The notes beneath the pieces are model-generated. The model was not told where the DNA came from, did no database searches, and worked only from the letters and a program-made list of their open reading frames with translations. A DNA stretch of 64,000 nucleotides from Schmidtea polychroa (lineage: Eukaryota). Position 1 is the first letter of the stretch. Each line of letters opens with the position of its first letter. The stretch is taken from positions 25,608,001 through 25,672,000 of the forward strand of contig CM097885.1 in assembly GCA_044892525.1 (NCBI GenBank), in the 5' to 3' direction. Positions 3,623 to 5,249 of this stretch are shown here, in pieces. The translations under genes were made by a program, and so were the position numbers.

Positions 3623-3704
3623 GCCATTATGGCGGAGTGGGATTAGGCTTCAATTTTATCACCGGGAGTACCGGGTTCAATTTTCGATTTTGGTCAATTT
3701 TTTT
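3623..3704 (+). ncRNA. tRNA-like Pol III unit 1 in Polinton A
   Basis: A box TGGCGGAGTGG (3630-3640, at tRNA position 8), B-box-like GGTTCAATT (3674), followed by a T7 run. Confidence 0.55.
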
Positions 3705-3865
3705 CGATATTTTTTTTCAATGGAATCTGATTCAGCGTACTGATTTTAGTATATATTTAAATTTTCAGATGGATCTGAGTGGTAGTTGTCGAGAAAATGA
3801 ATAATTAATTATTAATTTCATCAATAAATAGTCACACATTAACAACTTATTTTATATTGAGTATA

Positions 3866-3946
3866 GCTCTAATTGCTTAGTGGTAATAGCACTCGACTGC
3901 ATTGCCAATACCAATGGGTTCAAATCCCATTTCGGTCATTTTTTTT
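3866..3946 (+). ncRNA. tRNA-like Pol III unit 2 (tRNA-Cys-like 5' half, perfect T-arm)
   Basis: A box TTGCTTAGTGG, AGCACTCGACTGCA, T-arm ATGGG-TTCAAAT-CCCAT, then T8. Anticodon and acceptor stems do not pair well. Confidence 0.6.
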
Positions 3947-4102
3947 CAAATTTCTTTTAACGAAATATTGATCAGCATACTCGATTTAGTACTTGTACAA
4001 ATTTTTAAGGTGATTGGTCAACGGCAACTCTTGGAAATTTAAGATCAAAAACGTTTTAACTACCAAAAATTAATATATCCAATAAAAAAAATATTTATAA
4101 AA

Positions 4103-4339
4103 ATGGATGAGTTAAAAGAAAGAATGAGAAATGAATTGAATGAAGTTAAACATAAGAGAATGAAAAGAAGAGAAGAAGAACCATTAGAATACATCAAAGA
4201 GTTGATGGTAGATAATGAAAAGTATCGACGTTTTTATATGAAGGCTGTAGATGTTGCTGATATAAGATTGAAGAAAATGAAACAATTACAGGAAAGAGTT
4301 AAAGAACTTGAATCGATTATTTATAGTCTAAAAAAATGA
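4103..4339 (+). CDS. 78-aa charged coiled-coil hypothetical protein of Polinton A
   Basis: AAAATG start, conserved in copy 2 (32570-32806). Upstream motif shared with pPolB. Confidence 0.55.
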   Translation: MDELKERMRNELNEVKHKRMKRREEEPLEYIKELMVDNEKYRRFYMKAVDVADIRLKKMKQLQERVKELESIIYSLKK

Positions 4340-4340
4340 G

Positions 4341-5249
4341 AAAAATCCAAACCTAGATAGCGCAGTGGGCTAGACTGGCACAGTGGTTCAAATGGATGGT
4401 GGTTCAAATCCTAATTGTGGTTAGTTTTTTTTCAACATAAAATAATATTAAAAATTTGAAAATAATAGTGTGGGTATCTTAGATTTATATTTTATTTTAT
4501 TTATTTTTATTTTATTTTATTTATTTTTATTTATTTTTATTTTATTTTATTTATTTTATTAATTAATTAATTTTTAAACATAAATATGAAAAAAAAATTA
4601 TTGAAACCGGTGATGGTGGCGAACCGGTAATTATCGCCACCTGTCTTTCGAACACCCCCGGATCGATTCCATAATGTGCACATTTATTTCTCAGTTGTTT
4701 TCGGACCTCTTTCGAATTCACTTTCGAATTCATTTGTACTTTCGAGCAGCACGCTTAAAACGCCGATGAAATCGCATTCGAGCGAGAAGCGAATGATAAG
4801 GTGTGCTGCTATTATCGGATTGATTCTGATGTATGAGTCTGGCCAGCTTGTATATTAGAAGAGATTTGATAAACGAGAGGTTGAAATGATCCGGATCAAA
4901 AAAACTGTTGAGGGGACAGTGAAAAAAAAAAAAAAAATACCACTGTCCCCTCAGAGCAGTTTTACTATTTTTCATTTATTTTTTAATTTATATAATTTAA
5001 AATCAATGATCTGATAAAGATCAAATAGCCCTCTAACTTTTTCATAATGCCATTTTCTTTTCTATTCTCTTTTTAGTTTGAAGCTTTTGAGTTTGAGGCT
5101 TTAAAGATTAAGGGTGGTTGTTGTTTAAAATATGGTGTTAAAATACTATAAAAGTATAGGTTTTATGTTGTTTTTCTAATGGTTTAAGCATAGTGGAGGT
5201 ATGTTTTTGTTGGGAGGGTTGTGTTGGTTGGGTATATATACACACTACT
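4341..5249. repeat. Right terminal inverted repeat of Polinton A (copy 1)
   Basis: Reverse complement of 18801-19678. Contains a 13-bp GC hairpin at 4909-4953. Confidence 0.9.
4351..4432 (+). ncRNA. tRNA-like Pol III unit 3, inside TIR
   Basis: A box TAGCGCAGTGG (4358), B box GGTTCAAATCC (4401), T8 at 4425-4432. Confidence 0.6.

Follow-up and report, generated by a model that had tools for sequence, protein, structure and literature searches.

A sub-terminal cluster of Pol III-type units in a planarian Polinton, combining probable host rDNA-spacer sequence with a candidate folded viral RNA

Adenoviruses, herpesviruses and some retroviruses are known to produce Pol III RNAs. The VA RNA of adenoviruses is about 160 nt long, is encoded internally in the genome and is organised into a terminal stem, an apical stem and a central domain, and its main target is PKR, a vertebrate protein. 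Bovine leukemia virus (BLV) and foamy viruses carry Pol III microRNA cassettes, those of foamy viruses lying inside the terminal repeat. The TMERs of murine gammaherpesvirus 68 form a cluster of tRNA-like A/B-box units near the genome end that are not charged as tRNA; an A/B-box head precedes the hairpins, and there is an alternative terminator (PMC4337559). No description of Pol III RNAs in Polintons emerged from a title-level literature search; in planarians, Polintons are targets of piRNAs and H3K9me3 (PMC8532177).

The locus described here lies in a window of 64,000 nt, the whole stretch of DNA analysed, from the 781-Mb genome of Schmidtea polychroa (four large contigs, two rDNA types). 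The element within it encodes protein-primed PolB, a PLA2-like domain with an rve integrase, an A32-type ATPase and a double-jelly-roll capsid; Pfam matches comprised DNA_pol_B_2, rve and DJR-like_dom, together with a weak match to Pox_A32 (E 0.0011). The genes that characterise group I Polintons/Mavericks (PolB, rve, capsid and A32-type ATPase) are present, as are long TIRs with AGT/ACT ends (~900 bp, 92% identity). The right end reads ACTACT; on the left, the window copy is cut short and joined to the end of another element. Window positions 1–7299 duplicate 28485–35775 at 99.5% identity, host flank included, as a segmental duplication. The features of the locus are as follows.

Positions 18797–33715, no strand assigned: group I Polinton with PolB, PLA2-like domain and rve integrase, ATPase, capsid and TIRs.
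Positions 3578–4065, + strand: 488-bp cassette that matches the intergenic spacer of host type-I rDNA; an empty site in sister loci.
Positions 3623–3704, + strand: unit 1, with A box at 3630, B box at 3674 and T7 at 3698–3704; a paralogue of unit 2, probably spacer-derived.
Positions 3866–3946, + strand: unit 2, with A box at 3873, B box at 3917 and T8 at 3939–3946; probably spacer-derived.
Positions 4103–4339, + strand: 78-aa ORF between cassette and TIR, lacking a Pfam match and missing from some subfamilies.
Positions 4341–5249, + strand: right TIR, with a terminal ACTACT, of the Polinton copy that comes first in the window and is partial, from inverted-repeat comparison.
Positions 4351–4432, + strand: unit 3, with A box at 4358, inner B-box-like repeat at 4385, B box at 4401 and T8 at 4425–4432.
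Positions 4610–4972, + strand: unit 4, with A box at 4617–4627, B box at 4660–4670, inner T4 at 4698 and T-runs at 4960–4972.
Positions 19079–19430, − strand: left-TIR copy of unit 4, from inverted repeats.
Positions 19587–19668, − strand: left-TIR copy of unit 3, with decayed distal B box, head-to-head with the region upstream of PolB.
Positions 32062–32532, + strand: second cassette copy with units 1 and 2 (at 32107 and 32350), within the segmental duplication.
Positions 32818–33440, + strand: second right-end copy of units 3 and 4, from sequence comparison.

The A boxes of units 1–3 start at tRNA position 8 (at 32114, 32357 and 32825 in the second set), the distance from A to B box is 44, 44 and 43 nt, respectively, and the T runs follow 22–24 nt past the B box. 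No A/B/T unit arose in 300 order-2 Markov simulations of a 15-kb element, so that the three units, which lie where an earlier note on this DNA had placed them, are far beyond chance expectation, and the Pol III type-2 promoter anatomy proposed for them is borne out at the sequence level. Several details of that description require amendment. The duplicates at 32107, 32350 and 32818 are present but, as part of the segmental duplication, are not independent; the left-end copy of unit 3 exists but retains only the inner B-box-like repeat; the A box reported for unit 2 is a minor variant within the family; and the count of three, although units 1–3 are real, missed the fourth A/B-box unit at 4610.

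The same note held that the units are not functional tRNAs, and this stands. Default ARAGORN found no tRNA in the window and Rfam returned nothing at gathering level; at a 90% threshold ARAGORN reported unit 2 alone, flagged as a pseudogene. The commoner form of unit 2 scored 32.4 bits on RF00005 with its acceptor and anticodon stems broken (host tRNAs, of which 63 were scored, reach 62–74 bits), and the complete cloverleaf with paired acceptor and anticodon stems that marks a tRNA gene was not found. The 5′ half of unit 2 resembles a host tRNA-Cys(GCA) gene, but global identity did not distinguish Cys from Lys as its source (47 versus 47 identities), Cys being favoured only by the 5′ half and the anticodon. 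Compared with shuffled sequence, unit 2 folds better (z −2.6 to −2.8), while unit 1 (z −0.46), unit 3 (z +0.57) and unit 0, a related unit of the rDNA spacer, do not. Elsewhere in the host genome, tRNA genes occur in long tandem arrays (L101, L124 and L303) with periods of 424 bp (Lys), 278 bp (Arg) and 281 bp (Cys), and a Cys/Trp-type tRNA pattern has about 990 matches.

Unit 4 lies in a GC-richer part of the TIR, 180 nt beyond the region covered by the earlier note. Its A box is near-consensus with one mismatch and is unchanged in 66 of 69 copies, and its A–B spacing is 43. As RNA, the unit folds with a z of −8.5 on the outward strand and −4.3 on the opposite strand, and the region also folds as DNA (z −5.5). 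The predicted structure includes a 25-bp, G-U-rich, pre-miRNA-like hairpin at about 4813–4869, which forms on the outward strand only, a 3′ hairpin at about 4901–4963 and a long-range stem that contains the B box; G-U pairs account for 12 of 98 confident pairs on the + strand and 1 of 59 on the − strand. Across 64 copies, stem changes common to several copies kept pairing in 7 of 9 cases (expected 0.38, p = 0.019), a test that comprises nine events in related, recombining copies, two of which break pairs, and that uses a structure predicted from one member. The result was again 7/9 when repeated with another reference copy and 69 copies (redundant loci of one site were removed from the alignments beforehand), and one of the shared changes is two-sided, with a G-U intermediate in 2 copies. 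Interchanges between G-U and Watson–Crick pairs keep pairing only when the outward strand is read as RNA. Rare stem changes kept pairing in 12 of 35 cases, against the same expectation of 0.38, and variable sites were not rarer in stems (9/138) than in loops (11/144). Searches of Rfam gave no family match for unit 4 down to E 10, the hits by E-value in the TIR all falling far below gathering scores, and a comparison of three unit 4 motifs with planarian papers gave one unrelated match; the hairpin could already be listed among the microRNAs in supplementary tables of such papers. On these sequence features, unit 4 is a credible candidate for a viral RNA, and a better one than units 1–3; that it is transcribed seems to us slightly favoured. 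Expression of unit 4 would extend the Pol III RNA strategy to integrated relatives of adenoviruses.

In layout, unit 4 appears closest to the gammaherpesvirus TMERs (PMC4337559), with an A/B-box head, an inner T4 and two long hairpins. Unlike TMERs, however, the head of unit 4 is not a cloverleaf and its microRNA-type hairpins are predicted, while units 1–3 end in T7–8 straight after the head and lack hairpins. With adenovirus VA RNA the locus shares an intragenic type-2 promoter, a T-run terminator and a carrier of the protein-primed-PolB lineage; internal A/B boxes with a T-run are present at the sequence level in units 1–3 and, with one A-box mismatch, in unit 4, which also has a strong fold that places its B box in a long-range stem. 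In contrast to VA RNA, the units measure 75–80 or ~355 nt and are sub-terminal, and neither a ~160-nt three-domain RNA nor an Rfam VA match was found. By the features tested, unit 4 belongs to neither the VA nor the TMER family. Like the BLV and foamy-virus cassettes, it is predicted to be an A/B-box-driven hairpin RNA in an integrated virus, but it is longer and multi-branched. Units 1 and 2 recall instead the capture of host sequence by Polintons and repeats derived from rDNA spacers, since they appear to be a captured host repeat with microhomologies at its junctions; unlike usual captures, the piece bears tRNA-derived promoter units and occurs in two positions of one family.

The cassette carrying units 1 and 2 consists of two diverged 243-bp sub-repeats, each with one tRNA-derived unit, and matches the type-I rDNA spacer at 92.6% over 432 nt. 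A tandem array of ~13.5 kb, reached through unit 0, was identified as 45S rDNA by Rfam matches to 18S, 5.8S and 28S. Its type-I spacer holds unit 0, unit 1 and 2–3 copies of unit 2, all antisense to rRNA, and so contains a superset of the cassette, with the extra unit 0 upstream and unit 2 repeated. Genome-wide, 709 spacer-type junctions were counted versus 861 18S 5′ ends, and units 1–2 have the position, frequency and copy-number variation of intergenic-spacer sub-repeats (between the 28S end and the 18S start, in most repeats, in variable number). tRNA-derived Pol III-type units are thereby shown in the spacer of one of two rDNA types; the second type, 91–92% identical in 18S/28S, has no such units, and the spacer units therefore cannot be shown to be older than those of the Polinton. 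Individual spacers of the commoner type carry 4–5 tRNA-derived A/B-box units (for example at L181:330–1380 and L182:6290–7100, on C220), and a title-level search found nothing on tRNA-like units in rDNA spacers of this host.

A sister Polinton subfamily lacks exactly positions 3578–4065 in 4/4 loci (86 probe matches), with a single AAAATT remaining where the filled form has this hexamer at the cassette start and again just past the cassette end. At the junctions, the spacer has AAAATT on the left and two bases in common on the right. The filled junction has 1377 exact matches; a first junction probe had none, because the sister subfamily differs at the probe site. As the ends of the spacer match coincide with the ends of the empty site, units 1 and 2 were most likely captured from the host spacer, a direction of transfer that we regard as highly probable, and the locus documents a clean host-to-virus capture with empty sites. 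In a rarer arrangement, seen at 8 of 10 dispersed sites, a longer spacer piece follows unit 4; copies in which this position is empty occur as well. In 19 aligned copies (out of 25 chosen), 6 site patterns were common to both Polinton arrangements against the spacer and 1 pointed the other way, at 3–4% distance, for which the simplest explanation is one recent capture followed by relocation. No selection on units 1–2 since capture was detected in a comparison of two copies (1–2/146 substitutions in units versus 9–11/~293 in spacers, p = 0.18–0.24). Other rDNA fragments occur in or beside Polintons of this genome, indicating that such capture is not rare. At L086:2340–3130, a copy of a second Polinton family holds a piece of 28S 3′ end along with spacer sub-repeats; it agrees with present rDNA at 100% over 304 nt and represents another, very recent rDNA insertion in a Polinton.

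Unit 3 has no match in either rDNA type and a search for a host tRNA source gave 0 matches; it is native to the ends of the Polinton family in the window (family A). Units 1–3 are, on sequence comparison, not one thing, units 1–2 most likely being pieces of host spacer and unit 3 a short, Polinton-specific, eroded tRNA-like sequence. In 57 haplotypes the two GGTTCAA boxes of unit 3 are nearly invariant and the flanks vary, although the difference between box and non-box positions is not significant (2/22 versus 16/52, p = 0.07). An AT-rich motif, present upstream of PolB and of the capsid gene alike, faces unit 3 head-to-head at a distance of 30–60 nt. Of four contig-level sequencing runs compared with 3300–4480, two, which are guessed to be RNA and carry no strand, ends or level, are deeper over unit 3 than over units 1–2, where there is little; in one of them (X2), depth reaches 1533 at unit 3 versus 0–34 over most of 3580–4339. 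The contigs of these runs extend past both predicted ends of unit 3, and the mean record length in X2, ~35 nt, would fit piRNAs.

The pattern of A box, B box and T-run gave about ten thousand matches genome-wide, 4908 of them on the forward strand, and 0 in a reversed control, and the expectation that the units recur in other copies of the family was confirmed in over a thousand. Four different terminus types accompany units 3 and 4. A sister family whose PolB is 57% identical carries the two units at a single, internal position, where its homology to family A stops ~35 nt past unit 4, and has no unit at its left end. Such a distribution is more in keeping with a module that behaves like a gene than with a replication signal or an insulator acting at both ends, although chance recombination could also produce it. 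Two pairs of loci (L185/L189 and L186/L190) represent a chimeric high-copy family, in which a PolB of ~57% identity and its own TIRs are joined to family-A structural genes and the whole RNA module. The earlier note had suggested looking for A/B boxes in other Polintons; no such units were detected in the distant families covered. Within 200 kb of C1 with many distant PolB matches (24–44% identity), the only A/B/T match was an orphan of spacer unit 0 outside an element, 89% identical and ending a few bases before the cassette. Among 104 external PolB loci (837 kb; 75 metagenome, 29 viral) there was 1 match, versus 0–2 in shuffles, and it proved to be an intact tRNA-Thr beside a retroelement-like ORF, outside a Polinton; absence in these loci is weak evidence, as many of the contigs lack element ends. 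Scans of viral contigs with single proteins and the unit 3 pattern found nothing. As far as tested, the A/B-unit feature appears family-specific.

We consider the locus best explained as a two-layered sub-terminal Pol III locus, in which units 3 and 4 are native and units 1 and 2 are captured passengers, and put the probability of this reading at about one half. The core layer, native to the Polinton family, would consist of units 3 and 4, both facing out of the element in head-to-head arrangement with the genes for polymerase and capsid; their A and B boxes would presumably be bound by TFIIIC. Transcription of unit 4 would yield an RNA of ~90 nt, or of ~355 nt by read-through of the inner T4. 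This T4 could stop Pol III at ~90 nt, and as host Cys tRNA genes end in T3–T4 only, four T residues may suffice for termination in this host. The long hairpins of the longer form would be possible substrates for Drosha or Dicer, and the RNA might serve as a source of viral microRNA or as a decoy against host RNAi/piRNA silencing; such an anti-silencing or microRNA role is a tentative proposal. The accessory layer, units 1 and 2, would be a fragment of type-I rDNA spacer captured once by template switching at short microhomologies and then moved within the family, probably as a passenger that adds at most TFIIIC sites. A dedicated Polinton Pol III locus, the equivalent of adenovirus VA RNA and herpesvirus TMERs, in which the RNA of unit 4 and its microRNA-like products blunt RNAi/piRNA, the other units add TFIIIC sites and the module has spread between elements with different termini by escape from silencing, is a doubtful extension of this reading. 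Existing small-RNA and ChIP methods allow a direct test of the claim that unit 4 is expressed, since silencing of Polintons by small RNAs is documented in this host and can readily be perturbed.

Of the alternatives, the least improbable, though still unlikely, is that all four units are passengers or DNA-level elements, units 1–3 being decaying tRNA-derived sequences and the fold of unit 4 a single-stranded DNA structure or a Pol II RNA element of the TIR with chance A/B-like boxes. Units 0, 1 and 3 are indeed unstructured, the unit 4 region folds as DNA, the captured units show no excess conservation over their spacers and rDNA capture has recurred. Against this, pair-preserving interchanges in unit 4 are confined to the outward strand as RNA, its A–B spacing equals that of the other units, and beyond the block of units 3 and 4 lie the actual ends of the element, which are swapped independently of it.

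Barrier activity of tDNA is established, and the units could work in cis as TFIIIC-bound barriers, keeping heterochromatin that spreads in from host DNA away from the neighbouring polymerase and capsid promoters, with RNA as a by-product. The placement of unit 3 beside the motif upstream of PolB and the capsid gene, and its nearly invariant boxes, are consistent with such a function, as is the H3K9me3 targeting of Polintons (PMC8532177). We nevertheless judge it quite unlikely, as 6/6 loci of sister families with 55–58% PolB identity (among L183–L188) have no unit within ~2.2 kb upstream of PolB, and the folded body of unit 4 would be superfluous in a barrier.

It is improbable that the transfer ran in reverse, the cassette arising in the Polinton lineage, being donated to the type-I spacer and becoming fixed there by concerted evolution. 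The second rDNA type without units, a 13-nt AT-rich motif of the cassette that also occurs upstream of PolB, and the unit 0 orphan that stops just short of the cassette speak for such a history, but empty sites exist at both Polinton positions, and the spacer has no Polinton sequence past the common piece and continues on either side of each breakpoint.

The interpretation offered in the earlier note, that the three 75–80-nt units are themselves virus-evolved analogues of VA RNA, is now very unlikely, although its group I Polinton, its Pol III anatomy and its exclusion of functional tRNAs all survive. In its favour, more than a thousand copies retain intact A/B boxes and terminators, and unit 2 folds better than shuffled sequence; however, units 1–2 match host spacer DNA and are dispensable, being missing from sister subfamilies, units 1 and 3 have no stable structure, and the units are half the length of VA RNA. 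The parallel with PKR is also weak, as that protein is restricted to vertebrates. It is chiefly unit 4 that keeps alive the idea of a Pol III RNA encoded by a Polinton. An origin as dispersed host SINEs inserted in the element, which the many genome-wide pattern matches might suggest, is scarcely credible and is refuted for the sampled sites, since none of 42 was free-standing (39 Polinton ends and 3 rDNA spacers, such as L031; 11 + 1 of 12, 20/20 and 8 + 2 of 10 in the separate samples), no solo copies running from the Pol III +1 with their own target-site duplications were seen among them, and the captured piece begins 45 bp upstream of unit 1, indicating capture at the DNA level.

Several further observations concern the Polintons of this genome. 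The capsid gene is split into two ORFs in both window copies (30760–32050 and 2276–3566), and since L189 and L190, the further copies inspected, show the same break, it could be a constant property of the gene such as a short intron. Window positions 12196–18790 hold a second, partial Polinton family with a chromodomain integrase and an ATPase, along with TBP-like (15229–15693) and Bcl-2-like (17620–17940) ORFs, and the end of this element runs directly into the family-A element at the latter's left end. After the Polinton end at 5249, a short piece (5250–5480) closes in another ACTACT and is followed immediately by an AGTAGT start, giving stacked element ends, and an intact host HSP70 gene with a short intron (9500–11509) lies between the two duplicated segments. 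Polinton termini are short modules in which the last ~20–25 bp recur further in as an inverted copy (L062, L183, L185, L189 and L313), and different termini have been swapped onto one body; the window copy (5000–5249) lacks the inner inverted copy. At 254.07–254.09 Mb and 254.51–254.53 Mb of C1 (L151–L154, L183 and L184), inward-facing pairs of PolB genes ~11 kb apart, with 55% identity to the PolB of the window, suggest a palindromic element.
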